From: Candidatus Thorarchaeota archaeon | Lineage (GTDB): Archaea > Asgardarchaeota > Thorarchaeia > Thorarchaeales > Thorarchaeaceae | Assembly (NCBI GenBank): GCA_008080745.1 | Contig: SHMX01000004.1 | Span: 120,001 to 152,000, forward strand | Reading direction: 5' to 3' | DNA: 32,000 nucleotides | Shown: in pieces, positions 17,717 to 32,000 of the stretch | How positions within the stretch are numbered: position 1 is the first letter of the stretch | Layout: the number at the start of each line of letters is the position of its first letter | Translations under genes and position numbers: made by a program | Notes under the pieces: model-generated | Seen by the model: only the letters and a program-made list of their open reading frames with translations | What the model was told of the DNA's origin: nothing | Databases searched by the model: none

Positions 17717-19267
17717 CTACACTAATACCTCACAAGATTCAAGAACTTTAGTATCTGTTGTAAGAGAGATTGGTTTTGCTTGAATGTGACTCGATTTTAC
17801 CACATCCTCAAAATGAGATCTTGTCATTCTGTGGAGTGTCGTTGCTCCCAGTGCTCCAGTTTCACGAACTACTCTGAATTCTTCATTTGAACTTTTTAAT
17901 CCCTCTTCAAATGCGAGCACAAACTCTCTCGGATCGGTTCTCTCTCTGAACATAGCAGCAATCACATATTTAGGAATTCCTTCTTCGACTAATCCGATTA
18001 CACTATAATCCATGACTTCAGAACTGGTCTTTGAACAAGCAAAAGCGATTGCATCTGAAACATGCGCTTCAGAGAGCTTCTCACCAGATAAATTAACCAC
18101 TCTTCCTTTTCTGGAGATAGAATGTATTGTATATGGGTCAGTGTCACCAAATGTTACGATATCTCCATTTCTATATCGATAATACCCTCCCTTGTTGGTT
18201 ATAACTATCTCATATCTGAATCCTCTTTTGACTTCGGATAATGGGATAACCTCTGGATTTGGTTTCTCACAGTCTCTTTCACGAATAAATTCAAAATACG
18301 TCAGTTGTGGAATAAGTTGCATACCTTTCGTGTCTTCATACATCTGACCAGCATAAACTCCTTCTGATCCTCCGTAAATATCCCATATTGTTACATTAGG
18401 CAATGTTTTCTTAATCCACTCTCTATATGGGTCGGTATCTATTCCTGAAGCATAAAATAATCTTAAATCCGGCATTAGTTCCGCAACATCAACCTTACCA
18501 TCGTCGTAAACTGCTCGTTTAATTCTAGCTTCATGTTTCGTTCCTTTTGTTACATCTTGCAATAAAGAACCATATTGATTCTGTAGTCTCCTCAACAAGG
18601 CAAGGGATAGAGTCGTGATGCCTTGTAATGCTGTAATTCTTTCAGTCGCAACAATCTTGGCATATTCTCGCATCTTATCGTCCATATCCATTAGATTGAA
18701 GATATCTTTACCCGGTTTCATTAGACGTTGAAAAATAGGATTTTGACGACTTGCGTACACTCCTGTTGCATATCCCACAGGTATTCCATTTATTCTATTT
18801 AATTCGATTGGTGCTCCAAAAACAAGAAGGGTTCCATCCAATATTTTTGGATTTTCTTTGTCTGCCATCATGAATGCCATTAGTGTATGCATTGATGCTT
18901 GTGATACTTCTTTGCAGGCCGTTACCGTGAACGGTAGATGCTTTGGCTTACCTGTCGTTCCTGAAGTTTGAAGGTATGCAAAGGGGGTTTCCATAGTCAA
19001 AGCTTGGCAATCTGGGTTTTCGTAAATCCTTTGAAGATATGGCATACGCGATTGATGCGTAGAGAGTGGTATACAATCGGCCCATTCTTCTATATTATGT
19101 ATTGATTGAAAATCGTATTCTTTCCCAAATTGTGTACTCTGTTGGCATTCTATTATTTCAAATAATTTCTTTTCTGTATGTTCAATTGGTGCATTCAAAA
19201 TGCCTTCCATTTGCTTGAACTTCTTACGTGCCAAAATTGACACCAGACGCCTCATAATCGACATCAC
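17717..19267 (-). CDS. GH3 family acyl-acid amido synthetase-like protein
   Basis: TQFGKEYDF, QTSGTTGKPKHLP, YGGSEG, GGYYRYRNGD, GEKLSE motifs of GH3 adenylating enzymes. Confidence 0.9.
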   Translation of the reverse strand: MMSIMRRLVSILARKKFKQMEGILNAPIEHTEKKLFEIIECQQSTQFGKEYDFQSIHNIEEWADCIPLSTHQSRMPYLQRIYENPDCQALTMETPFAYLQTSGTTGKPKHLPFTVTACKEVSQASMHTLMAFMMADKENPKILDGTLLVFGAPIELNRINGIPVGYATGVYASRQNPIFQRLMKPGKDIFNLMDMDDKMREYAKIVATERITALQGITTLSLALLRRLQNQYGSLLQDVTKGTKHEARIKRAVYDDGKVDVAELMPDLRLFYASGIDTDPYREWIKKTLPNVTIWDIYGGSEGVYAGQMYEDTKGMQLIPQLTYFEFIRERDCEKPNPEVIPLSEVKRGFRYEIVITNKGGYYRYRNGDIVTFGDTDPYTIHSISRKGRVVNLSGEKLSEAHVSDAIAFACSKTSSEVMDYSVIGLVEEGIPKYVIAAMFRERTDPREFVLAFEEGLKSSNEEFRVVRETGALGATTLHRMTRSHFEDVVKSSHIQAKPISLTTDTKVLESCEVLV

Positions 19268-19851
19268 ATTTTTCCTCCGGTGATTCTAAAGAAAACACCT
19301 ACTACTTTTGGCGCCTTTCAAAATGAAATGACTTCGCTTCATATCGAATACTCTTTCAAAACTCTCAAAACTATATATAAAATAACAATAGTTCTCCAGA
19401 ATAGTTATTATAGCTTTATAATGCCTTAATTATATCTTTAGGTAATCATAGCAGTTATTTTCACACTGGTTTGCTGATTTTATCACATTTTTCATTAATT
19501 TTAGAACGATTGTAGAAATTCTCTTTCATAACCAACAAGTTGATTTACACATGATCTAAAAAGAAAAGTTCAAACAAGTTGAAACCTATGGCATAATCAT
19601 CAGATATGGAATTAGGTTTTTTTTCGATTTTATTTAGATTTCCTCTAAAAACGTGAGATTTCAGCAATCGTGACAAGTAATAATCAATCATAACATAGAT
19701 AAACAAAAATTAAGTTCTATTATGCCTTTTTTACTATTGTGCATTCATAATATGCCTCAATTATTATTATTTGATGTTAATATATCTGGATACACTTTCT
19801 CCCAAAATTGAAGATTTCTTGAAACAATACTTCTTTTGACGGTGATAAGAA
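19268..19851. promoter_or_regulatory. 584-bp AT-rich divergent control region upstream of the large operon
   Basis: No ORF in the track; several TATA-like tracts; repeated ATGCC-core motifs and an AACAAGTTGA direct repeat. Confidence 0.5.
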
Positions 19852-20607
19852 ATGATAGCAAAGCTCGAAAGTCAACTTACTCACATCTGTAAGGACTCGG
19901 GATACAGCTCAAAGATGATTGATGCTACATCGATTCTTCAAATGGCATTCAATAACCCTGATCGTAATATCATCAAAGCGAGAATCAAGTATTCTGGTCA
20001 AAATGAAAAAACATGGATTGTAGTTATAGTTGGCTTGAGGAGTAGTGTTCTGCAGCCATTCAACAAATTCACCAATATAGCTAGTGGCCAATACTCCCCC
20101 TGTGACATTTTTGGTATTGTTCCTTGCATCGCCCAACTTGTTCGGTTCGAATCTACAGGGCCCTCTCTGAGTGCAATTGTGAAAGACGATGTCACTCGGA
20201 TTGTTTTGGTCTTTGAAGGTGATTCAGAGGCTAGATTAGGACCCATTAACTCATTGGCAACCCGACTGTGGCGGTTCATGAAACGGTGGGATGAGTGGAC
20301 AGAGGTCCTACTGGGGATTTTGGAACGTGATCAATATGTTGGTGATTGGGAGCTAAATTGGCGTGAACTTTTGGCTGGTGAATCAGGTTTTGTAACGATG
20401 CCATGGTTTTCTCCTTTGCATTATGATAATCGAGTCTTAGCTATGGCAAGAATAGTAACAGCTTCCAAAGCACTTCTCACCTCTGTTTTGAGTGGTCAAC
20501 AAATGAGTGATTCAATGATAACGGGATTACTTGATTGGTTGGAAAACTTGGAACCTCTTCCAAGAATAGAGAGTGCTCCGTCAACAGATGAGGAGGTAAT
20601 GGTATAA
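19852..20607 (+). CDS. Hypothetical protein (operon gene 1)
   Basis: 251-aa ORF, GGTGA RBS; no recognised motif. Confidence 0.8.
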   Translation: MIAKLESQLTHICKDSGYSSKMIDATSILQMAFNNPDRNIIKARIKYSGQNEKTWIVVIVGLRSSVLQPFNKFTNIASGQYSPCDIFGIVPCIAQLVRFESTGPSLSAIVKDDVTRIVLVFEGDSEARLGPINSLATRLWRFMKRWDEWTEVLLGILERDQYVGDWELNWRELLAGESGFVTMPWFSPLHYDNRVLAMARIVTASKALLTSVLSGQQMSDSMITGLLDWLENLEPLPRIESAPSTDEEVMV

Positions 20608-20608
20608 A

Positions 20609-21076
20609 ATGCTAGTAAACGAATATCTGGGTAATAGTTGGAACGGAGAATTTGGTGTTCCGGACCTATCATGGTTATCTGGTGCAAAGGCTGGAATGCA
20701 GACTTTGAGTGAGCGGAGTCCTACATGGCTTTGGGATGATTTCATTACTGATATTCAAGAGATGATTGAATTAACACGAGATCTTGGATGCACTTTCCCA
20801 GGACAAATCCCCCGCCTTGGAGATGGGCTATCTGGTTCGATTCTTAGTGCACTTGGTGGGTATATCAGTATAACAGGATGTCTTATTGTTGAAGGTCTCT
20901 TCTTCCGAGTTTCTAGGAGGTATCACGAGGATGTGAAAATTGCATTGTCCGGTATTGAGATTCAATCGGTCTATGATGGTTTGGTTATTTCTGCTTCTGA
21001 TTTTAAGCGCCTTCATAACCTCGTAACAATTTGGGGCCCACTTGAGGAGATGCTGGCTGAGGAGGTCATAAAGTGA
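20609..21076 (+). CDS. Hypothetical protein (operon gene 2)
   Basis: 155-aa ORF, GAGGT RBS-like motif; stop overlaps the radA-like start (GTGA). Confidence 0.75.
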   Translation: MLVNEYLGNSWNGEFGVPDLSWLSGAKAGMQTLSERSPTWLWDDFITDIQEMIELTRDLGCTFPGQIPRLGDGLSGSILSALGGYISITGCLIVEGLFFRVSRRYHEDVKIALSGIEIQSVYDGLVISASDFKRLHNLVTIWGPLEEMLAEEVIK

Positions 21077-22137
21077 CAGATCTTGAGTCAGTTAGTGGAG
21101 TAGGCCCTGCAGCTGCAAAGAAATTGCGTGAAGTATTCGTGACCACAGCAGAACTACTCGCGGTTCAAAATCCCGTGGAACTTCAAGCGAAGACCAAACT
21201 TGGTGAAGGAACAGTTGATAAAATCATCAAGAATGCCCGAGAGCTGGTTGGGACTTTTGGTTTCAAGAGTGGACTTGAGGTCGAACAGGATATGGCGGAA
21301 CTACCACGGCTATCAACAGGTATTTCCAAACTTGATGATGAATTACTTGGCGGCATCGAGATTGGATCAATCGTTGAATTCTTTGGCCCATCAAGAGGTG
21401 GAAAAACTCAATGGGCGGCTCAACTTGCTGTTATGACTCAGCTACCTTTAGAACAGGGGGGTCTCGATGGAAGAGTACTTTGGCTGGATAGTGAGTCTTC
21501 TTTCAAGCCTTGGATTATCAGGGCTAATGCAATACGGTTTGGAATGGATCCAGATGTAGCACTTGGCAACATTGGAAGAGCGCAAATAATTCTAAGTAGT
21601 CAACTAATGGACCTCTTTGACTCCATACCGCAACTTTGTGCAGAGAATGATTACAAACTTGTTATTGTTGATTCGCTTACTGGTTTGTTTAGAGTGGAAT
21701 ATACCGGTCTAGAAATGTTGAAGGTACGTCAACAAGATATGAATGGTCTTCTAAATACGATGCGGAGAACTGCATCTGCAACAAACACCATTTTTGCATA
21801 TACTAACCATGTAATGGCAAAGATATCACTCTATGGAGGTAATCCAAATCATCCTGTGGGTGGACATACAATTTCACATGCTTCTGATTACAGATTCTAC
21901 ACGCGTAGATCAAAGAAAGACAAAAGGAAGTTGGACCTTCAAGATAATGCAGGAGTTCCGGAATTTAGCTTTGAATTAACTATTGGTTGGGGTGGATTCT
22001 ACGGCTCTAGTGCTGAGAAGAAGGAAGTTGAGCCCAAGATAAAGGAATACTTCGACAAACATGGTTTTGCGAAACCTGAATCAAGTCCTGATGAAGAATT
22101 GGAGGAGGACATTGTAGCGGCAGGTGAGATTGAGTGA
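21073..22137 (+). CDS. radA: RadA/Rad51-family recombinase, divergent full-length paralogue
   Basis: N-terminal HhH (LESVSGVGPAAAKKL), Walker A GPSRGGKT, LDSESSF, Walker B LVIVDS, L1 LFRVEYTG..RQ, L2 TNHV..PVGGHTISH; acidic tail. Confidence 0.9.
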   Translation: MTDLESVSGVGPAAAKKLREVFVTTAELLAVQNPVELQAKTKLGEGTVDKIIKNARELVGTFGFKSGLEVEQDMAELPRLSTGISKLDDELLGGIEIGSIVEFFGPSRGGKTQWAAQLAVMTQLPLEQGGLDGRVLWLDSESSFKPWIIRANAIRFGMDPDVALGNIGRAQIILSSQLMDLFDSIPQLCAENDYKLVIVDSLTGLFRVEYTGLEMLKVRQQDMNGLLNTMRRTASATNTIFAYTNHVMAKISLYGGNPNHPVGGHTISHASDYRFYTRRSKKDKRKLDLQDNAGVPEFSFELTIGWGGFYGSSAEKKEVEPKIKEYFDKHGFAKPESSPDEELEEDIVAAGEIE

Positions 22138-22592: not shown

Positions 22593-23214
22593 TTCCAAAT
22601 CAAAATCTGGTGTAGTATGGGTTCCCAGAACTCCTAAGACGGTAAAAAGAAGCTCGATGATTAATCTGGTCAATCTATTACTGAGAGAAACTTCTCATCG
22701 AGTAACTGTACTCGATAAGTCTGAAGAGCCTGATCCAAAACTGTTTGTGGTTACCCGTATTGAATGGAGAGATCCTGATATCAGAAAACCACTCCTTCCC
22801 CAGTTACCGAGATTACTATCACTATTGGAGACCCTTAGAGGCACTCGTGGTGTTCCTACTGAGATTTATTTAGACAGTACAGATGGTATTGCGGTCTATC
22901 TACCTACTCATGAAACCGTTTCCACCTTGCCTGAAAAACCAAAAGAGTGCGTACGTCATTTGATGGATTTAGTAGAAAATCATGTTGAACATACATTGGC
23001 AACTATGCAAGAGGTAGAGGAGTATTTCTGGAAGACCGCCCGTAAAAAGGGATATAGTCCTGAAATTGTTGCGAAGATTGATCTAAAAGAGAAACACTTC
23101 GACTCACCAGAACATGTCTATAGGTTCCAATATCTGCTGCAAAAATATTTCTCAATACGTTTCCGCATTCACTCAAGTGAGTCTTGTTTACGTGTGGAGG
23201 CTGGTAGTTGCTAA
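22579..23214 (+). CDS. Hypothetical protein (operon gene 5)
   Basis: 211-aa ORF, GGAGGT RBS; overlaps both neighbours. Confidence 0.8.
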   Translation: MAESSSKSKSGVVWVPRTPKTVKRSSMINLVNLLLRETSHRVTVLDKSEEPDPKLFVVTRIEWRDPDIRKPLLPQLPRLLSLLETLRGTRGVPTEIYLDSTDGIAVYLPTHETVSTLPEKPKECVRHLMDLVENHVEHTLATMQEVEEYFWKTARKKGYSPEIVAKIDLKEKHFDSPEHVYRFQYLLQKYFSIRFRIHSSESCLRVEAGSC

Positions 23215-25178
23215 CAGATACGACCGACCCGCTATCCTGGTTTCCATACCTGCCAAGACCTCATCAGGACAAAGCGGTTTACCTCTCTGCAGAGGTCTTT
23301 GGGTCGAAGAACGTGGGATTACTATCTGCTGATTGTGGTGTGGGTAAAACTATCGCAGTATTATCCGGCTATTTGGCGGCTCGATATGATGATCCAACAT
23401 CTAGGTTATTCGCTCTAACTAGAACCCACTCACAATCGAAAGTATTTGAAGAAGAATTAAGCATACTAAGAGAACAATCACTTGCTATCACAGCCACTTC
23501 TATGGTGTCAAGAGTACATGTATGTCCAATTCGTGCTCAGATTTCTTCCAATACCTCAACGGGATTCACAAAAGCTTGTTCCCAAATGGTCAAGATGGGT
23601 AGGTGCACTCATTATTGGAACATGTATAAGCGACATAGAGAAGAGGGAAAACTCACTATACGAAATCAAATTCGTTCTCTTCTGGAAGAGCTTCTAGATA
23701 CTGGAGTAGTTAGCAGAGACCGAGCAGAAGACTTTGCAAATCTTCATACTCTCTGTCCATATGAAGTGCTTCGCTGGTGTGCTAGAAATAGTCGTGTTGT
23801 GATTGGACCTTATAGTTATATGTTCAAATCCCGTGTGCGTGATTCTCTGTTGGCTTCTGTGGGAGTCCATCTTCATGAATTGGACTTACTAATTGATGAA
23901 GCCCATAATCTTCCTTCTCATGTTCTTGATTCTGAAACAGCACGGTTGACTGGGGAAGACCTGAGATATCTGAAAGAGCATAGTCGAGAATTGGTTAGAG
24001 AGACAAGAGTCGATTGGATTGGAGAAGTTGTTGATTTTCTTTGGGAAACTCTCATGGTAAAATTGGATAGTTTTGGAAATAGACGCGAAATAAAACTGGA
24101 TAAATGGGATGTAGTTCCTCGCTTTATTGAGAAAGAGAGTCTTGACCTTTTGGTTCAATCCCATGATTTGAGTCTTGGTGACCCAGAAAATGCTGTACAT
24201 GCTGAGAATCCCTTTGATCGATTTGTTGATTTTTTGTTGATTGGAAGTAAAGCTGTTGAAAGCGAAGATTGGCATATATCGCTTAACTTGATGAAAAACT
24301 GGCATGGAGAAAAGACACCGCTTAAGACCAATCTTGCTATCCGCCCTTTGAATGCAGCTGGATTAACTGCACCTGTCCTAAGAGGTGCTAGATCAGCGTT
24401 GCTGATGAGTGGAACACTCAGACCATTAGAACACTATGGGAAGCTTCTTGGTGTTTCGGGTGCTTTAAAGGAGGACCTAGAGAGTCCATATCCCAAAGGT
24501 AGTAGACTTGTTCTTATTGATAAGAAACTGTCGACAAAATACACAGAGAGAAGTTCCGAACTCTGGAGACTGTTAGCTGAGCGTATCAATGCAGTTCTGA
24601 ATACTATGCCAGCAAATAAGAGTGCCATGATTGCCTTTCCTAGTTATCATATGATGCGTGAGATTTTGAGCTATTCCATCGACACCGGTTATCGTGGGAA
24701 GATAATTGAGGATCGTGGTGCTCGTCTGGAGTTTGTAACCGAGGCGATCGAAGAACGTCCTCAAGCGGTCTTCTGTGTATATGGTGGAAAATTCAGTGAA
24801 GGAATTGATATTGTAAAAGATGGTTCTAGTATGATTGACCTAATTATTGGTGTTGGTATTCCTTTTAGCCCACCAACCAGCTATCAGCAAGCAATTCAGG
24901 ATTGGTACAATCGGAAATTTGGTGAAGGTTTAGGGTATTACTACTCGTCGGTTGTACCATCATTACGTCAGGTTGCTCAATTGATTGGCCGTCTTAGAAG
25001 ATCCCCTTCTGATTGGGGTGTGGTTACTCTTCTAGATAATCGGTTTATGAGATATTTGTCAATTCTGGGTGATGGTATCGTTTCTGATATTTGGCCTTAT
25101 GAGAGTGTATCTGAGATTCGTTCTGCTATCACATCCTTTGTAGAAATGAGAATGGGTGATAATTGTGAGATATTCTAA
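23208..25178 (+). CDS. xpd: XPD/Rad3/DinG-family Fe-S DNA helicase
   Basis: Q motif RPHQ, Walker A ADCGVGKT, four Cys of the Fe-S domain (VCP, KAC, GRC, LCPY), DEAHN, SGTL, GGKFSEGID, QLIGRLRR. Confidence 0.93.
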   Translation: MLTDTTDPLSWFPYLPRPHQDKAVYLSAEVFGSKNVGLLSADCGVGKTIAVLSGYLAARYDDPTSRLFALTRTHSQSKVFEEELSILREQSLAITATSMVSRVHVCPIRAQISSNTSTGFTKACSQMVKMGRCTHYWNMYKRHREEGKLTIRNQIRSLLEELLDTGVVSRDRAEDFANLHTLCPYEVLRWCARNSRVVIGPYSYMFKSRVRDSLLASVGVHLHELDLLIDEAHNLPSHVLDSETARLTGEDLRYLKEHSRELVRETRVDWIGEVVDFLWETLMVKLDSFGNRREIKLDKWDVVPRFIEKESLDLLVQSHDLSLGDPENAVHAENPFDRFVDFLLIGSKAVESEDWHISLNLMKNWHGEKTPLKTNLAIRPLNAAGLTAPVLRGARSALLMSGTLRPLEHYGKLLGVSGALKEDLESPYPKGSRLVLIDKKLSTKYTERSSELWRLLAERINAVLNTMPANKSAMIAFPSYHMMREILSYSIDTGYRGKIIEDRGARLEFVTEAIEERPQAVFCVYGGKFSEGIDIVKDGSSMIDLIIGVGIPFSPPTSYQQAIQDWYNRKFGEGLGYYYSSVVPSLRQVAQLIGRLRRSPSDWGVVTLLDNRFMRYLSILGDGIVSDIWPYESVSEIRSAITSFVEMRMGDNCEIF

Positions 25179-25758
25179 GAAGAAAAATTACTTCTGGAGC
25201 TTTGTTACTGGATCATTGGTTGGTTTTGTTCTGTATGTATTTCTAAACCAGACTATATTTGATGTTGTCATTGGTGTAATGGGAATTGGAATTGGAATTG
25301 GGATTATACTTCTATGGACCCAATTATTCAAGGCAAAAATCATGTGGAGTGAAACCCATGGATGTTTGGCCATTAATCGCAAGTATACTGTCGATGTATA
25401 TGCAGGATGTATTATGACAAGTGTTCCTCTTGGTATTGATCTAAGTCGTTCAGCTCGAAAAGTGCTACGAGCTATCGCTACCAGGATGAAAAATGATATC
25501 GACTGTGAGATTAGTTTTTTTGTCATTCGGCCTGTTCATAAATTCCAAACGAGGGTCGGACTACTGGTTTCACGTAATACCTTCCGTTTAGTGAATGGGC
25601 TTACTCAATCCGACTCTCTTCTAAAGCAACTGAATCAGGATGTAATGACCTTAGAGTCCGCTTTGAGAGCTGCCTATCCTCACACGCCTGTTGAAAGAGC
25701 ATCAGCTGATGATTTGCTACTTGTTACTACTGGAGGAGTCTACACCCATGAAATCTAA
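25156..25758 (+). CDS. Hypothetical membrane protein, two N-terminal TM helices plus soluble domain
   Basis: FWSFVTGSLVGFVLYVFL and VVIGVMGIGIGIGIILLW; exact start uncertain. Confidence 0.75.
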   Translation: MIIVRYSKKKNYFWSFVTGSLVGFVLYVFLNQTIFDVVIGVMGIGIGIGIILLWTQLFKAKIMWSETHGCLAINRKYTVDVYAGCIMTSVPLGIDLSRSARKVLRAIATRMKNDIDCEISFFVIRPVHKFQTRVGLLVSRNTFRLVNGLTQSDSLLKQLNQDVMTLESALRAAYPHTPVERASADDLLLVTTGGVYTHEI

Positions 25759-26050
25759 ACTACGTAGTTCCTTAGAGATACCCTCCTCTATAGAGCCAAA
25801 TGATGTGATGGAAGCACTTCGAATCGGACATGGATACCAGTGGACTAGGTTGGTTTTAGAACCAAAATTCATGGCTCATGGAAATCCTCCTTCTTCCAAG
25901 CTTCCAGAGTTGTTATTTATTGGGATAAAAACCCTCATTCTTTCTGGCGGTTCTCCTGAGTTTCCTGAGAGAATTGAGAAGATGATTGATGCAATTTGTA
26001 GAAGCTCGAAACGAAAACAGAAATTATCTGGAGGAAGGTATCATGGGTAA
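25748..26050 (+). CDS. Small hypothetical protein (100 aa)
   Basis: ATG 25748 preceded by GGAGGAG; MKSKLRSSLEIP...; overlaps both neighbours. Confidence 0.65.
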   Translation: MKSKLRSSLEIPSSIEPNDVMEALRIGHGYQWTRLVLEPKFMAHGNPPSSKLPELLFIGIKTLILSGGSPEFPERIEKMIDAICRSSKRKQKLSGGRYHG

Positions 26051-28382
26051 ACCGTTAATTCTTGGTTCAGAACCAGAAAAAGATCCACTAGAATCACGGA
26101 CTCGACAAAGCATGATTGTGAGCTCTGATACAGAGATAGATTGGGATAGTCGAAGTGTAGAACAAAAGTGGTCATTTCCGATTCTTATTGGCTTTATCAC
26201 AATATTAGTAGTATTGTTTCAACCTATTCTTTCGATTTGTTTAACTATTATCATCCTATCTACCCTTTATTTTCTTCCTACTGTTTCAGCAAGAAGAGAA
26301 ATCGATTCTATCAGAAATAGTCAATGGATTATACTGAAGCCACGTGAAAATATTCTCTCGGAAACCGATGAAACTCTACTATATCGGGATAATGATGATA
26401 ATCGTCATTTAATAGGGTTAGAATTGTTTGAACCAAGTAACATGTTGTTTGGCTCTTTGGGAAGCATGATACGCTCTCTCAATACAGACCATGGTTTTGT
26501 GCTTCGTGTTTCTATGCGATTGGAATCGATAGAAGAAGTAATTAATCAAGATAGAATTCGTTCTAATAAGGAAGAGTATCTGGAATCACTTGGTAAATCT
26601 GGCAGGCATCGATTCATTTCTGTTAGAGGCGGGCTCTGGTCTACTTATGTAATGCTTGTTGGTCATCTTAGAGATTTACATTCGGTTTCTACCTTTGAAG
26701 CTGCTATACATGGGGCAGTTCCAACATCAGGTTGGAAACAAATCGAGAATAAAGATCTCGCTAAACGATTGACCATTCAGAAGAGCGATTATTTATCCCG
26801 GTTTTATGCTCTGGGTCATGAGCTATCGGAATGGCTTGTTCAATTACCCAGTGAGTTAGCGCCCGAAGTAGGAAGCAATGTGCCCAGTGAATTCCTATCT
26901 CCGATTAAAACTATAGCTTCTGATTATCCACTTGGAGTCGCTGTGAATCCTGAAACACTCCAGACTGGGCCTGTAGTCGGATTTAGTCATAATGATTTAG
27001 TGAATGGAACTTTAGTATGTGGTGGCACCAACGCAGAACGAAAGCGGATACTTGCACTCCTCATCCAGGCATTGATTGCTAAAGAAAAACGTGTTCTCCT
27101 CATAACTGGCAATCCAAATTATGGGGATTTGGCTGGTCTCACAGAGAATGTAATTACCTTGGAGCTGGGTCATGACTTTGTTCTTAACCCCGTTGATCCC
27201 GACAATGTACCAAGGACCGAGTATGTTGGGCAATTGATTTCTGCTTTGGAGATTTTGGCAGGAGCTGACCTTACAGGAGCTGCTGATCTTGAGATAGCAC
27301 TAAACCGAACAGTAGCAATTGGGAATACCACTGTGGCAGATGTTAGATTTGATACTGCAGAAGAATTGATGGATTCCCCATCGATTGATAAGACCTCTCA
27401 GACAACAAAACCAAGTAATAAGTCCCTAGTGGGTCTTGATGCAGTCCGACTATTGCATGAGGGATCTGGTGCTCGTGCATTTTATGGAACTCAAACCATC
27501 CCTATCCGTGATTTCACTAAAATTCCCTATACAGTTCTTACCATTAACCTAGGGTCTGTCGAACTGGATACATTTGCATTTGATTTATTGATGATGAAAT
27601 TAGCCGGTCTGAAACAAGATTCCGATTTTGTAGTGATTTTTAATGAACCACTAAATCTTGTTGCTAGAAATCGACGACATTATTACAGAATTCCATGGAT
27701 AGAGTTCCTTGCTAAACGTGTGAAAAAGAGGGGCCCATTAGTTGTAGCAATGGAACACCCTGCTGATTTTTCACCTGCAACTATTGGATTGTTGACTTCA
27801 TGTGTTTCATCTAGGTTACGAGAGTCAGTGGATGTAAAAGAGGCTGTTGATCTTCTTGGTCTAAGTGTTATTCAAACTGGGATGCATAGTAAAGCACGTC
27901 ATTCTTCAAGAGAAACTTCCTTTCTACGGGTTATCCCTGATGGAATGGCTGTTATTGCAAATACTGGTGGTGAATTAGGTTATCCCGTAAAACTGAATGA
28001 TTCCCCAGACCTCTCGGAGATGACATCAACCACAGATGTAACAAAGCGTCTGGCTGAATATACGACTTGTGTAAAAGAAAGTAGCTCTAGGAAGACAGAT
28101 TCATTAATTGAGCATGTGATGGGCCGGGATTACGAACATGGCATAGCAGTATTACGTCTTCTTCAAAGATATGAACCCCTTACCCAAGAGGCTGTTAGAA
28201 AATTCATCTCTACTACAACTGATGATGTTCCTGATATAGAAGCCATTTTGATGAAATTAGAACGTGGAAGTTTGATTCTGAAGGGACATGAAATTCACAG
28301 TGGTGTCTCTTATTTGAACTATCGATTGACAATGAAAGGAACAATGGCGTTGAGGCAAAACGGGGAGGATTTGATGAAATGA
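26043..28382 (+). CDS. Membrane-anchored HerA/VirB4-fold pseudo-ATPase with C-terminal winged helix
   Basis: Likely start ATG 26043 (GGAGG RBS); TM hairpin near the N-terminus; HerA-like scaffold TLVCGGTNAERK / VLLITGNPNY / LNPVD / VIFNEP / VVAMEHPADF with destroyed Walker A and D-to-N Walker B; wHTH-like end LMKLERGSLI...YRLTMKG. Confidence 0.65.
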   Translation: MGKPLILGSEPEKDPLESRTRQSMIVSSDTEIDWDSRSVEQKWSFPILIGFITILVVLFQPILSICLTIIILSTLYFLPTVSARREIDSIRNSQWIILKPRENILSETDETLLYRDNDDNRHLIGLELFEPSNMLFGSLGSMIRSLNTDHGFVLRVSMRLESIEEVINQDRIRSNKEEYLESLGKSGRHRFISVRGGLWSTYVMLVGHLRDLHSVSTFEAAIHGAVPTSGWKQIENKDLAKRLTIQKSDYLSRFYALGHELSEWLVQLPSELAPEVGSNVPSEFLSPIKTIASDYPLGVAVNPETLQTGPVVGFSHNDLVNGTLVCGGTNAERKRILALLIQALIAKEKRVLLITGNPNYGDLAGLTENVITLELGHDFVLNPVDPDNVPRTEYVGQLISALEILAGADLTGAADLEIALNRTVAIGNTTVADVRFDTAEELMDSPSIDKTSQTTKPSNKSLVGLDAVRLLHEGSGARAFYGTQTIPIRDFTKIPYTVLTINLGSVELDTFAFDLLMMKLAGLKQDSDFVVIFNEPLNLVARNRRHYYRIPWIEFLAKRVKKRGPLVVAMEHPADFSPATIGLLTSCVSSRLRESVDVKEAVDLLGLSVIQTGMHSKARHSSRETSFLRVIPDGMAVIANTGGELGYPVKLNDSPDLSEMTSTTDVTKRLAEYTTCVKESSSRKTDSLIEHVMGRDYEHGIAVLRLLQRYEPLTQEAVRKFISTTTDDVPDIEAILMKLERGSLILKGHEIHSGVSYLNYRLTMKGTMALRQNGEDLMK

Positions 28383-30586
28383 CGACGATATCCGACGTTC
28401 CGAATCCAATTGAACAGATTCTGCATTCCGCAGGGATAAAACCCCGTGGTGTTCAAAAGAAAGCCATCAAAGCTGGGATTTATGATGGTAAAAGCATCAT
28501 GGTTTCGAGCCCTACGGGATCTGGTAAGACTCTCATCGGAGAAATGGCTCTCCTCCGTGCAGTTCTGAGTGGTAAGAAGGGCCTTTATTTGGTTCCCCTT
28601 AGGGCCCTCGCAGTACAAGTAGCGTCAGTTTTGAAAGAACGATATTTTGATTCCGAGATAAGTGTCGGATTAAGTACTGGTGACTATCATACAGATGGTG
28701 AAGAACTATCTACTTATGATGTAATTGTCACCACCTATGAACGAACAGATTCGCTTCTTCGGAAAAAGACGTCTTGGCTAGGAGAGATTGGAACAGTAGT
28801 AATTGATGAGATTCAGACTTTAGCGGAAACTCAAAGAGGAGCTAGATTAGAATCTACTATCATCCGACTAAAACATCTAATTCCAGAAATACAGCTGATT
28901 GTTTTATCTGCAACCATTGGAGCTCCAGATGAACTTGCAGAATGGTTGAGGTGTGAACTCGTAGTATCAAACGACCGTCCGATTCCACTTCATTCTAACA
29001 TAATCACTACAAGTGACAAGAGTAATGCAGTGAAAGAGATTGTTATGACTACTGTCCAGAGTAATGGTCAGTGTTTAGTATTTCATAGAACCCGTCGTGA
29101 AGCAGAGGTTCAGGCGATAAGACTTTCTGCAGATGTTGGTCGTCAATTCACAGCAGAAGAGAAGAAGAAAATAGATGACGAGTTAGGTTCTGTAGTTAAT
29201 TGGGACGTTAAACTACCTGCAGGTCTAAAAGCACTTCTTCATGATGGTACTGCATATCACCATGCTGGACTGAATTATCTTGCCCGGAGATTGGTTGAGG
29301 ATTTATTCAGACGTGGTATGATTCGCGTAATCTGTGCAACCACTACTCTAGCATCAGGAATCGATCTTCCTGCTCGTACTGTTGTTCTTACATCTGTGAA
29401 AGAGCCATCAAATCACAATCAATTCATGTCTGGAAATAAAATTCATCAGATGCTTGGAAGAGCAGGACGTCCAGGATACGACAAACGGGGGGTAGGTGTA
29501 CTGCTTGCTGGAAGCTCTGGAGAAGCAGATGTTATCAGACGTAAATACTTCAAAACTTCATCTGTTACGGAGAATAAATCTGAGATTCTTCAGCCAAAGT
29601 ATGATCGATTGTTTAGTACTCTGAATGAAACAAATGCCGTAACTGAACAGCTACTTGTTGGATTTGATATGTTTGGGTCCACCACGGTTGAAAACATTGA
29701 ACAAAGCTTATTCTCTGACTCTTTTCTGATGTATTGTAGTATTCGTGACACGCGATCACCACACAGAATTCTTCAATTAGATGAACTATCATCAGAAACT
29801 GCAATCGAACGACATGCCCTCCAAGATGCTATTAGGTCTGCAAGACAGAATGTGCTTGCAAGTGTAAAAATTAGAGAAAGCACTGATTCTGTAATTGGAG
29901 GGATTGTAACTGGATGGGAAGGAGGTAATTTCACATCACGATTTTCTGCAAAGCTTTCACCTGATGGTACCGTGGAGGGTCCAATGTGCTCTTGTGGCAT
30001 CCCTTTTGACTCGAATGGTTTACTTTGTCCTCATTTGGTGGCCTTGGGTTTTACTGCGTCAAAGGAATTAGGTACATTAGCTGATTATGTAATTCCACTC
30101 GCATTATCTGAGAGTAATCCATTAGGAGTTCTTACAAGATTAGGACTTATAGAAGGCTCTGAAGATGGTGAATATAGGATAACCCATCTAGGTAGTGTGG
30201 TTAATCGTCTATATCTTAGCATCCCAACCATCAGAGAAATGATTGCTTTGTTACCTTTCACCAGTGATGTAGAAGATCTTCTTTGGCTTCTAAGACATTT
30301 GGCTTCAATTGAAACCGGGAGTTCTCTTGATGACTCCTATGAAAATCTTGTAGCTGGTGTTGCAAGCACGGATATGGAAATTAGTAAACTGGCAGAGAGT
30401 CTTGAACTACATGTTGGTGATGCTTACGGCCTTTTAGAAACATCAAGATGGCTTCTATCTGCAATCTCTGCAGTGAGTGAAATAGGAGGATTTGAAGAAT
30501 TGGTACAAAAATCAACGAACTTGCTGAAATCGTTGGATAATCGTTTAGGAAGAACTACTCCAGAAAATCAGGAGGATGAGGAATAA
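28379..30586 (+). CDS. Ski2-like (Hel308-type) SF2 helicase with inserted SWIM zinc finger
   Basis: GVQKKA, SPTGSGKT, DEIQ, SAT, HHAGL, TTTLASGIDLPA, QMLGRAGRPGYD; CSC-x10-CPH at 29987-30034. Confidence 0.92.
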   Translation: MTTISDVPNPIEQILHSAGIKPRGVQKKAIKAGIYDGKSIMVSSPTGSGKTLIGEMALLRAVLSGKKGLYLVPLRALAVQVASVLKERYFDSEISVGLSTGDYHTDGEELSTYDVIVTTYERTDSLLRKKTSWLGEIGTVVIDEIQTLAETQRGARLESTIIRLKHLIPEIQLIVLSATIGAPDELAEWLRCELVVSNDRPIPLHSNIITTSDKSNAVKEIVMTTVQSNGQCLVFHRTRREAEVQAIRLSADVGRQFTAEEKKKIDDELGSVVNWDVKLPAGLKALLHDGTAYHHAGLNYLARRLVEDLFRRGMIRVICATTTLASGIDLPARTVVLTSVKEPSNHNQFMSGNKIHQMLGRAGRPGYDKRGVGVLLAGSSGEADVIRRKYFKTSSVTENKSEILQPKYDRLFSTLNETNAVTEQLLVGFDMFGSTTVENIEQSLFSDSFLMYCSIRDTRSPHRILQLDELSSETAIERHALQDAIRSARQNVLASVKIRESTDSVIGGIVTGWEGGNFTSRFSAKLSPDGTVEGPMCSCGIPFDSNGLLCPHLVALGFTASKELGTLADYVIPLALSESNPLGVLTRLGLIEGSEDGEYRITHLGSVVNRLYLSIPTIREMIALLPFTSDVEDLLWLLRHLASIETGSSLDDSYENLVAGVASTDMEISKLAESLELHVGDAYGLLETSRWLLSAISAVSEIGGFEELVQKSTNLLKSLDNRLGRTTPENQEDEE

Positions 30587-32000
30587 TGGTAATCTCTGAG
30601 AAAAAGGAATCTAGTGTTATTGAATCTGACACAACGGAAGATGCTGAAACTGAATATGACATTGTTCGAGCTCTTCAGAAGACAGAGCATCTTACTCATA
30701 CATATGAGAATGGACTGGTACTAGGGGTACGATTAGAAGGTGTAACTGGAACACGAGGGGTACACCTTGATATCGTACATATTCTAGACCTTAGAAAAGC
30801 AGAATTCGGCAAGACCAATTTGGCCATGCGTGCTGCTGTATTGGAGAGTATGAATCGAAGCCTTGAATCACTTCTTGAAGATGTTGGTTTGAATGATTTT
30901 CTTGAGGAAAGAACATTCATCACTGCATGGGGTCGGGTTCGCATTCCAACAATTGGTTCCGCCAAGCACAATTCCAGATCAATGATTCACGAAACTCGAA
31001 CAGTCTATGTGATTGTGAAAGACACAAAACCATCTACTGATTTTTCTTGGCTCACTGAAACAAAAAGAGTGGTGACCCCTGACGAGTTTGCTTTAGTTCG
31101 AATTACCGACACCAAGTCTCTTCTTACCAACCTCCAGAAACAGATTGCATCAGAAAAATGGAAGATACTAGAAAGGGGTTTCCGTGATAGTTGGTTAGGA
31201 ATCATCTTCTCTTCTATAATTTTGGTGGGTATAGGAAGTATTGTTGGTGTTCTACTTGTCAATAATGGCAATGTCGCTTTGCCAATATTTGCAATTATCG
31301 GTGGAGTTCTGCTAGGCGGATACTTTCTTAGCTCTTCTCGTAGACATCTCTCCGATTTTCGAGAAATGGTTTGTGTGGAGGAACAAAAGCTCTCTGAGAT
31401 GTCTGATAAGACGCGGATAGAAGAATCTGTCCTTGAGAATATGGATAGTATGCGTTTACTAGGTGATTTGAATTTTGTAGTTTCACCACTGATGGCAAAG
31501 GCTGGGAATGCATTATCTGACCTAGATCTTGATGGTGCTGTTAGCTTTGCGTGTTCGGTTATGGATGAATGTATGCGTCTATCTTCTGCAGATTTGAGTA
31601 AATTAGAGGGTTCATTCATAGGTGGTGATGAAGGTATTGCAAAATTTGTTGGGTTATTTGGAGATTTGGGTGCTGAAGAATATGAAACAGACTTGGCATT
31701 AGCTTATGTCGCACTAACAGGCTATACTATCAGTCCCATATCTGCTGAAGAGGTCATCACTCATATAGCCACTCTAAATAACGCTCTATACCATATTGGA
31801 GCTCTTAGACCTGATATAAAAGAAATAATCGACGATTTACTGAATTCGCGTGCAGGTATGGAGGCTGTAGAATATCTAAATGAGGAGCTAAGCAAACCAG
31901 AAGAACCTATTCCGGAACCTAGTTTGCCATCCAAGAAACAAGAAGAAGCAACAATCGAAGATAAAGAAGACAGCTCTGAAGAATTAGATGCACTTAAAGA
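30586..32000 (+). CDS. Hypothetical two-TM membrane protein, runs off the right edge (over 470 aa; absent from the ORF track)
   Basis: Manual translation from ATG 30586 (TAATG overlap): MVISEKKESSVIES...; open to 32000; TM pair WLGIIFSSIILVGIGSIVGVLLV / LPIFAIIGGVLLGGYFL; acidic, Pro-rich end. Confidence 0.8.
   Translation, partial: MVISEKKESSVIESDTTEDAETEYDIVRALQKTEHLTHTYENGLVLGVRLEGVTGTRGVHLDIVHILDLRKAEFGKTNLAMRAAVLESMNRSLESLLEDVGLNDFLEERTFITAWGRVRIPTIGSAKHNSRSMIHETRTVYVIVKDTKPSTDFSWLTETKRVVTPDEFALVRITDTKSLLTNLQKQIASEKWKILERGFRDSWLGIIFSSIILVGIGSIVGVLLVNNGNVALPIFAIIGGVLLGGYFLSSSRRHLSDFREMVCVEEQKLSEMSDKTRIEESVLENMDSMRLLGDLNFVVSPLMAKAGNALSDLDLDGAVSFACSVMDECMRLSSADLSKLEGSFIGGDEGIAKFVGLFGDLGAEEYETDLALAYVALTGYTISPISAEEVITHIATLNNALYHIGALRPDIKEIIDDLLNSRAGMEAVEYLNEELSKPEEPIPEPSLPSKKQEEATIEDKEDSSEELDALK

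Follow-up and report, generated by a model that had tools for sequence, protein, structure and literature searches.

A membrane-anchored VirB4-like protein with a replaced P-loop and a C-terminal winged helix in a recombination-gene cassette of Thorarchaeia

A 32,000-nucleotide stretch of a Candidatus Thorarchaeota genome (GenBank assembly GCA_008080745.1, contig SHMX01000004.1, positions 120,001 to 152,000) encodes, at 26043..28382, a membrane-anchored VirB4-like protein of 779 amino acids (aa) plus a stop codon, which lacks a Walker A motif and ends in a winged helix. We refer to this protein as pseudo-VirB4 and to the whole stretch as the window; coordinates are those of the window unless another locus is named, and the window genes and protein segments given with coordinates lie on the forward (+) strand. 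Within the FtsK/HerA/VirB4 P-loop superfamily, pseudo-VirB4 appears to belong to the VirB4 branch as a non-catalytic member. What is new is a branch of the VirB4 family that is inactivated and fused to a winged helix. Taken as a whole, the reading that we hold with slightly more confidence than doubt is that pseudo-VirB4 is a non-catalytic organiser at the membrane, within a cassette of genes that handles DNA there.

Orthologues begin with an MGK or MGR that aligns with the ATG at 26043, which we therefore took as the start codon; a longer frame opening at the TTG at 25986 was rejected, as the aligned orthologue starts gave it no support. At least 98 full-length orthologues of about 780 aa were found, with 38-68% identity and 70 invariant columns, a pattern that indicates strong purifying selection. 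All family members with a source label came from Asgard metagenome-assembled genomes, mostly of Thorarchaeota. The sequencing runs listed comprised two of marine-sediment DNA, probably from the source sample, and none of RNA. The protein itself had no match in Pfam (to E 10), NCBIfam, PADLOC or a single-sequence search of the PDB; the curated VirB4 models, including CagE_TrbE_VirB and AAA_10 of Pfam, were thus not matched at that threshold or in NCBIfam.

An AlphaFold2 model built on 44 orthologues (mean predicted local distance difference test score, pLDDT, 77.6) placed the protein closest to VirB4. In a Foldseek search of the PDB with the full model, the best match was R388 TrwK/VirB4 (8rtd_O, E 1.3e-14, 640 columns), followed by HerA (4d2i, E 5e-12), SIR2-HerA and TrwB. 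The RecA-like C-terminal domain of VirB4/HerA type (residues 285-660, 26895..28022) was recognised by both structure matches and profile homology. VIA-align of model residues 285-658 gave a Z score of 28.0 with the VirB4 C-terminal domain 4ag5_A (root-mean-square deviation 2.7, 322 aa), and lower scores with DndH-C (7es4, Z 25.4, 315 aa), HerA (4d2i, Z 24.8) and TrwB (Z 21.7). Full-length TrwK was aligned over 481 aa, spanning model residues 103-672 (Z 20). The HerA/VirB4-type fold proposed in the preliminary description, which had been made from the sequence of the window alone, is thus recovered by structure prediction.

Because one domain can dominate a match list, the predicted N-terminal domain (residues 92-262, 26316..26828) was also folded alone (pLDDT 87.1). 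The first 14 Foldseek ranks were all TrwK/VirB4 (TMq 0.56-0.66), after which probability and TM-score collapsed. In an exhaustive VIA comparison with 48,161 PDB representatives, TrwK 7o42_A was the sole match at Z >=8 (Z 8.2, 162 of 171 residues, chain residues 209-392), and the next match covered only 93 residues. A Z score of 8.2 is modest by its own scale, yet the match extends over the entire domain and is well separated from the others. No HerA chain appeared in the match lists of the isolated domain, although absence from these lists does not exclude a HAS-barrel. Since both globular domains are closest to VirB4, the models argue that the protein is better called VirB4-like than HerA-like.

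The protein begins with a conserved, predicted cytoplasmic peptide (residues 1-40, 26043..26162), which is disordered in the model (pLDDT <50) and in which G8, P11, D14, P15, W34 and R37 are invariant or nearly so among orthologues. The following hydrophobic stretch (residues 41-83, 26163..26291; hydropathy 2.79) is interrupted by a Pro that is also present in the alignment consensus, so it is best read as a two-helix transmembrane hairpin with a Pro-containing turn, in agreement with the membrane anchoring suggested earlier. This hairpin presumably sits where VirB3 stands in VirB3-VirB4 fusions. The most conserved stretch of the protein is the linker between the globular domains (residues 258-290, 26814..26912; pLDDT <50 at 267-282), where W264, Q267, E271, L272, E275, G277, P281 and F284 are invariant among orthologues; part of it, P-[AS]-E-F-I-x-P, is also kept in distant relatives. 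Within the C-terminal domain, a basic loop (residues 613-631, 27879..27935; pLDDT <50 at 610-616) carries invariant K617, R619, S621, R623 and E624, and distant relatives retain its pattern G-h-[HY]-S-x-x-R, making it a candidate nucleic-acid contact.

The last domain is a PadR-like winged helix-turn-helix (residues 688-779, 28104..28379). DSSP of the model gave the order helix-helix-helix-strand-strand-helix (H688-710, H715-725, H732-741, E745-752, E755-762 and a final helix), and a profile of the last ~97 residues matched PadR/MarR structures in the PDB (best 3l7w, E 9.5e-5, with many PadR chains), in line with the C-terminal winged helix proposed from the sequence. Six of 20 family members matched Pfam HTH_34 and five of 20 matched PadR; pseudo-VirB4 itself matched neither. 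The preliminary description had called the combination of membrane segment, HerA-like core and winged helix an unfamiliar three-part architecture. It is instead the VirB4 layout, with a hairpin and the N- and C-terminal VirB4 domains, to which a PadR-like winged helix is added.

Four degenerate ATPase motifs had been listed for this protein, and all were found exactly at the coordinates given for them. The Walker A position (residues 327-334, 27021..27044) reads GGTNAERK, with a family consensus of C-G-G-x4-R, and the strand ITGNPNY was located in the translation at 27102..27122. The Walker B strand VIFNEP lies at 27633..27650, where Asn534 (codon 27642-27644) replaces Asp, and the sensor reads MEHP in place of TQxP (27750..27761), only its Pro being conserved. 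When 1.84 billion representative proteins were searched with the family profile, 153 matched at E <=0.001, and the weak end of these matches included true DUF87/HerA proteins with intact P-loops (E 5e-6). Profile-profile alignment (hhalign) with one of the latter (probability 93%, E 2.8e-7) set G327...R333-K334 on GttGsGKT, N534-E535 on the two acidic positions of Walker B and MEHP on TQSP, which bears out the assignment of these segments to Walker A, Walker B and the sensor.

The loss of Walker A is a property of the family rather than local decay. Motifs were counted in 109-110 Thorarchaeia orthologues, depending on the site. The motif starts with C (103), G (109) and G (106), and the position of the Walker Lys is Arg in 107 of 109 orthologues, none of which contains GK[ST]. 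The Ser/Thr position is occupied by L, R, M, K or H, and the Gly before the Lys position by S, D or E. At the position of the catalytic Glu, G (32), D (28) and E (22) were found, as well as T and S; of the sensor, 108 of 110 orthologues keep the Pro, and the Gln is not conserved. Among 98 more distant matches, at least some of whose weak scorers are genuine DUF87/HerA proteins, 78 have R and seven have K at the Lys position, and GK[ST] is missing from all five distant full-length relatives that were read directly. The Asp-to-Asn change noted earlier in Walker B is present in pseudo-VirB4 (Asn534), but it is not a family trait: the acidic residue is D in 96, E in 12 and N in two of 110 orthologues, so that the family keeps Asp and this protein carries the rare Asn. 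Walker A Lys-to-Arg changes are known to abolish hydrolysis in P-loop NTPases. Because of the motif loss and this general knowledge of P-loops, canonical Mg-ATP hydrolysis by the family is judged, from sequence, to be very unlikely.

Two genes upstream of pseudo-VirB4, gene G (25156..25758, 200 aa) encodes a membrane hairpin and an alpha/beta domain, and is a stand-alone paralogue of the hairpin and VirB4-like N-terminal domain. An hhalign comparison of 13 G orthologues with 21 distant full-length relatives of pseudo-VirB4 gave a probability of 90.8% (E 1.2e-6), with G residues 79-190 on residues 140-280 of the N-terminal domain. By phmmer, G matched a 253-aa protein of locus L034 (E 8.7e-4) and protein P0138 (E about 1e-3), and its ESM Atlas model aligned with models of archaeal DUF87 ATPase clusters (TM-score 0.51 by query, residues 58-196). 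The kinship emerged only with the broader family profile: BLASTP found no match between G and the pseudo-VirB4 N-terminus, and hhalign against a profile of the N-terminal domain from Thorarchaeia only gave a probability of 2.6%. In all four distant Asgard loci examined, the gene directly upstream of pseudo-VirB4 encodes a protein of 253-277 aa that is homologous to the first ~280 residues of the family (E 1e-31 to 1e-44). Between G and pseudo-VirB4 lies gene H (25748..26050), a soluble protein of about 100 aa whose start was inferred from an alignment of 14 orthologues and whose stop overlaps the pseudo-VirB4 start by 8 nt. Gene H is present in every Thorarchaeia cassette examined, with the motifs GHGY-W and AHG-P...MPELL, and belongs to no detectable family.

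The distant loci also contain ATPases with intact motifs. Directly downstream of one distant pseudo-VirB4 is a gene for an 873-aa HerA-like ATPase paralogue (L032:9131-11752) with the intact Walker A GGTNMGKS, which passes the DUF87 cut-off and matches the family profile at E 1.9e-11, suggesting a duplicated pair of one active and one inactive copy. Such an intact paralogue next door would fit a dead subunit beside an active motor. The letters GGTN are common to GGTNMGKS and to GGTNAERK of pseudo-VirB4. At another distant locus, a 794-aa protein (L007:12547-14931) contains GIPKTGKS and is similar to HerA_C/TraG; it has no detectable similarity to the family profile. The position of the intact ATPase in the distant locus is taken in Thorarchaeia by a Hel308-like helicase. 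The family also occurs in a split form, in which a 277-aa protein with the anchor and N-terminal domain (L033:7198-8031) overlaps a 533-aa protein with the C-terminal domain and winged helix (L033:8001-9602); a Hel308-like orthologue (353 bits), a small RecA-like ATPase and a ParA-like gene lie nearby. Two distant loci encode a protein with 4-6 transmembrane helices that weakly resembles M50/zincin-like membrane peptidases (L032:5058-5717, E 2.4e-5; L007:8533-9246, E 6e-3), and the Thorarchaeia cassette has no recognised counterpart.

In Thorarchaeia the gene order is conserved: a RadA paralogue, two small proteins, an XPD helicase, G, H, pseudo-VirB4, a Hel308-like helicase, K, a P-loop RecA-like protein, M, a Rad51 paralogue and an XPG/FEN1-like nuclease. 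This cassette of 13 genes spans from 21073 to about 35488 in window numbering, continuing beyond the window as L005:1-5488. Its first gene, the RadA paralogue (21073..22137), scores 180 bits, compared with 318 bits for the canonical RadA at C4:79775. The XPD/Rad3-family paralogue lies at 23208..25178, with a second XPD-like gene at C2:269246, and the Hel308/Ski2-like paralogue at 28379..30586, with a second Hel308-like gene elsewhere in the genome. As the genome contains a canonical RadA, a FEN1, another XPD and another Hel308-like gene, besides six DUF87 loci, the RadA, XPD, Hel308-like and FEN1-like genes of the cassette are second copies. Pseudo-VirB4 had been described as flanked by two helicases. 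The Hel308-like gene does overlap its stop codon, but the XPD gene is separated from it by two small genes. The link of pseudo-VirB4 to Hel308-like and RecA-like genes is conserved across Asgard lineages.

Besides pseudo-VirB4, four membrane proteins are encoded here: G, K and M in the cassette and the flanking gene B. Searches assigned none of the four to a recognisable family. Gene K (519 aa, from 30586 to the end of the window at 32000 and beyond) has two central transmembrane helices and belongs to no recognised family; gene M has about four transmembrane helices. ESM Atlas look-ups for K and M returned low-confidence, uninformative models. The RecA-like gene L (L005:2066-2842, 225-258 aa) keeps the Walker A motif GPAGSGKT, and that of the 239-aa Rad51 paralogue encoded by gene N (L005:3769-4488) is eroded to GVDKSPLT; together they form a second active/inactive pairing in the operon.

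Matches to the family profile were present in 53 of 85 genomes of the GTDB family to which the window belongs and in the sole other family of the order. The cassette is optional: all 13 genes are gone in genome G346, where the flanks are joined. There, the genes GH3, A and B run straight into an Lrp-like gene with about 57 bp between them and no cassette remnant (compared with L028:1-5480). An apparent absence in genome G332 was rejected as an assembly break, the contig ending inside gene K. A mobile element is not favoured: the annotated flanks showed no integrase, and carriers share with the non-carrier the same neighbours, GH3, A and B at one end and the Lrp-like gene at the other.

Based on these results, we propose that pseudo-VirB4 no longer hydrolyses ATP and serves as a membrane-bound organising subunit. 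It would probably oligomerise as VirB4 does, together with gene G, and its winged helix and conserved basic loop (613-631) would probably hold DNA or a partner. It may thereby couple the membrane complex to the helicases and recombinases of the cassette, whose activity would provide the energy. For the cassette as a whole, the most probable task would be DNA handling at the membrane, either uptake or exchange with subsequent recombination, by analogy with Ced/Ted, the DNA-import systems that Crenarchaeota derived from type IV secretion. The preliminary description had envisaged a ring that acts as a scaffold or passive DNA channel, with the winged helix binding DNA and the helicases as the motor; these functions are of the same conjectural kind as our own proposal. 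A more specific version, which we consider rather improbable, is an Asgard DNA-exchange apparatus derived from a type IV secretion or Ced-like machine, in which the inactive VirB4 and its N-terminal-only paralogue form a dock and the second recombination set pulls in and integrates foreign chromosomal DNA.

Several points weigh against a non-catalytic organiser of DNA handling. Oligomerisation, DNA binding and contacts with partners are inferred. Family scans and ESM Atlas recognised no VirB6/CedA-like polytopic channel or VirB2-like pilin among the membrane proteins of the cassette, so no transmembrane conduit is apparent. That G-G...R is invariant and the Walker B Asp conserved suggests that the old nucleotide site still binds something, in which case "dead" may overstate its condition. 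The patchy presence of the cassette (53 of 85 genomes), with its clean absence in G346, also fits a defence system. Defence against viruses or plasmids is the main rival, itself unlikely: pseudo-VirB4 would sense incoming DNA at the membrane or serve as a platform for it, the helicases and the FEN1-like nuclease would act as effectors, and the cassette would be a new and unusually large defence system. Apart from the patchiness within one family and the clean loss between the same flanks, HerA-fold proteins recur in defence, and the best structural matches include SIR2-HerA, DUF4297-HerA, TdpAB and DndH; in PADLOC, the Hel308-like protein matched Hachiman HamB models and the XPD a type IV CRISPR DinG model. 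However, these helicase matches reflect general similarity within superfamily 2 (SF2), and pseudo-VirB4 and seven others of the ten operon proteins scanned had no PADLOC match. The cassette also occupies a single fixed chromosomal site with a gene order conserved across genera, rather than a variable island, and RadA/Rad51 paralogues are atypical as parts of defence systems.

The conservation of the old nucleotide site bears on a second alternative, in which the protein is not a passive scaffold but continues to bind nucleotides as a switch, or hydrolyses NTPs slowly, through a deviant P-loop that uses Arg333 for Lys. G327, G328 and R333 are essentially invariant, and 108 of 110 orthologues retain an acidic residue in Walker B, followed by a conserved E/D-N; this retention of G-G...R and the Walker B Asp implies that the pocket is still used for something. 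We nevertheless regard a switch or slow NTPase as quite unlikely, given that L/R/M/K/H stand in for the Mg2+-coordinating Ser/Thr, that the Gly before the Lys position is S/D/E, that the catalytic Glu position varies among G/D/E/T/S, that the sensor Gln is lost and that pseudo-VirB4 has Asn in Walker B, besides the general effect on hydrolysis of replacing the Walker A Lys by Arg. A membrane-tethered transcription regulator, in which the PadR-like winged helix controls the operon and the VirB4-like body is only a sensor or anchor, seems highly improbable to us. Its C-terminal domain does resemble PadR/MarR repressors, and distant relatives keep the winged helix even where the N-terminal part is split off; but a conserved body of ~650 aa, a paired N-terminal-only paralogue and tight coupling to helicases and ATPases would be excessive for this task, and translocases, too, commonly handle DNA through winged helices, as with FtsK gamma. 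Scarcely credible, finally, is that the gene is decaying and represents what is left of a conjugation or HerA gene that was once active. The additional Walker B Asp-to-Asn change, rare in the family (2/110), would fit decay, but the frame is intact, the same motif loss occurs across Asgard lineages, gene order is conserved, and at least 98 full-length orthologues share 38-68% identity and 70 invariant columns, so that local decay was rejected on conservation.

Among known systems, VirB4/TrwK (R388 8rtd and 7o42; Thermoanaerobacter 4ag5) has the same two-domain body and N-terminal membrane association as pseudo-VirB4. Unlike VirB4, pseudo-VirB4 lacks Walker A, is degenerate in Walker B and the sensor, carries an additional winged helix at its C-terminus and matches none of the Pfam VirB4 models. 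It also lacks recognisable VirB2, VirB6 or VirB8 genes nearby and belongs to a chromosomal cassette of recombination genes rather than a conjugative element. The closest functional analogy, compared by description, is with Ced/Ted, which likewise have an archaeal VirB4-like protein and small membrane proteins, and are chromosomal, domesticated and feed recombination. Ted loci for crenarchaeal DNA import join a VirB4-like ATPase with Rad50 and HerA genes, and CedB/TedB are described as ATPases that power transfer (PMC9905601). By that description, the pseudo-VirB4 family is set apart by the loss of its ATPase motif, and no CedA/TedA-like channel or pilin was recognised.

HerA (DUF87, including SIR2-HerA and DUF4297-HerA) shares with pseudo-VirB4 the RecA-like core, the order of motifs and a C-terminal R-L-x-x-x-D block. 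Pseudo-VirB4 differs from it in a VirB4-like N-terminal domain, lost ATPase motifs and an added membrane anchor and winged helix, and no NurA, SIR2 or DUF4297 partner was found among the operon proteins scanned. FtsK/SpoIIIE follows a parallel logic: it is anchored in the membrane by its N-terminus, continues with a RecA-like domain of the FtsK/HerA superfamily and ends in a winged helix, which in FtsK (gamma) binds DNA. However, FtsK is a weaker structural match (2iut, Z 16.9, 212 aa), there is no FtsK_SpoIIIE match in Pfam, the winged helix of pseudo-VirB4 is PadR-like and its ATPase motifs are lost. The C-terminal domain of DndH (7es4; Z 25.4, 315 aa) ranks third among the structural matches of the core. 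DndH is part of a restriction system that depends on phosphorothioation, whereas no Dnd, Pbe or Ssp genes and no sign of phosphorothioation were found near pseudo-VirB4.

Our literature search found no paper on this family or its cassette, and no description of a whole family that keeps a selected VirB4 body, has its P-loop replaced and has gained a DNA-binding domain. To our knowledge, no ATPase other than VirB4 is shared by all type IV secretion and conjugation systems, for which its activity is considered indispensable. The family therefore offers a testable entry to the question of whether and how Asgard archaea exchange or recombine DNA at the membrane, and it also bears on the use of dead subunits in ring translocases.

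In the window sequence next to the cassette, positions 19001-20000 have a guanine-plus-cytosine content of 0.32, compared with about 0.40-0.43 in the operon. This interval covers the spacer (19268-19851) between the divergent GH3 gene and gene A, which is likely the promoter region of the operon.

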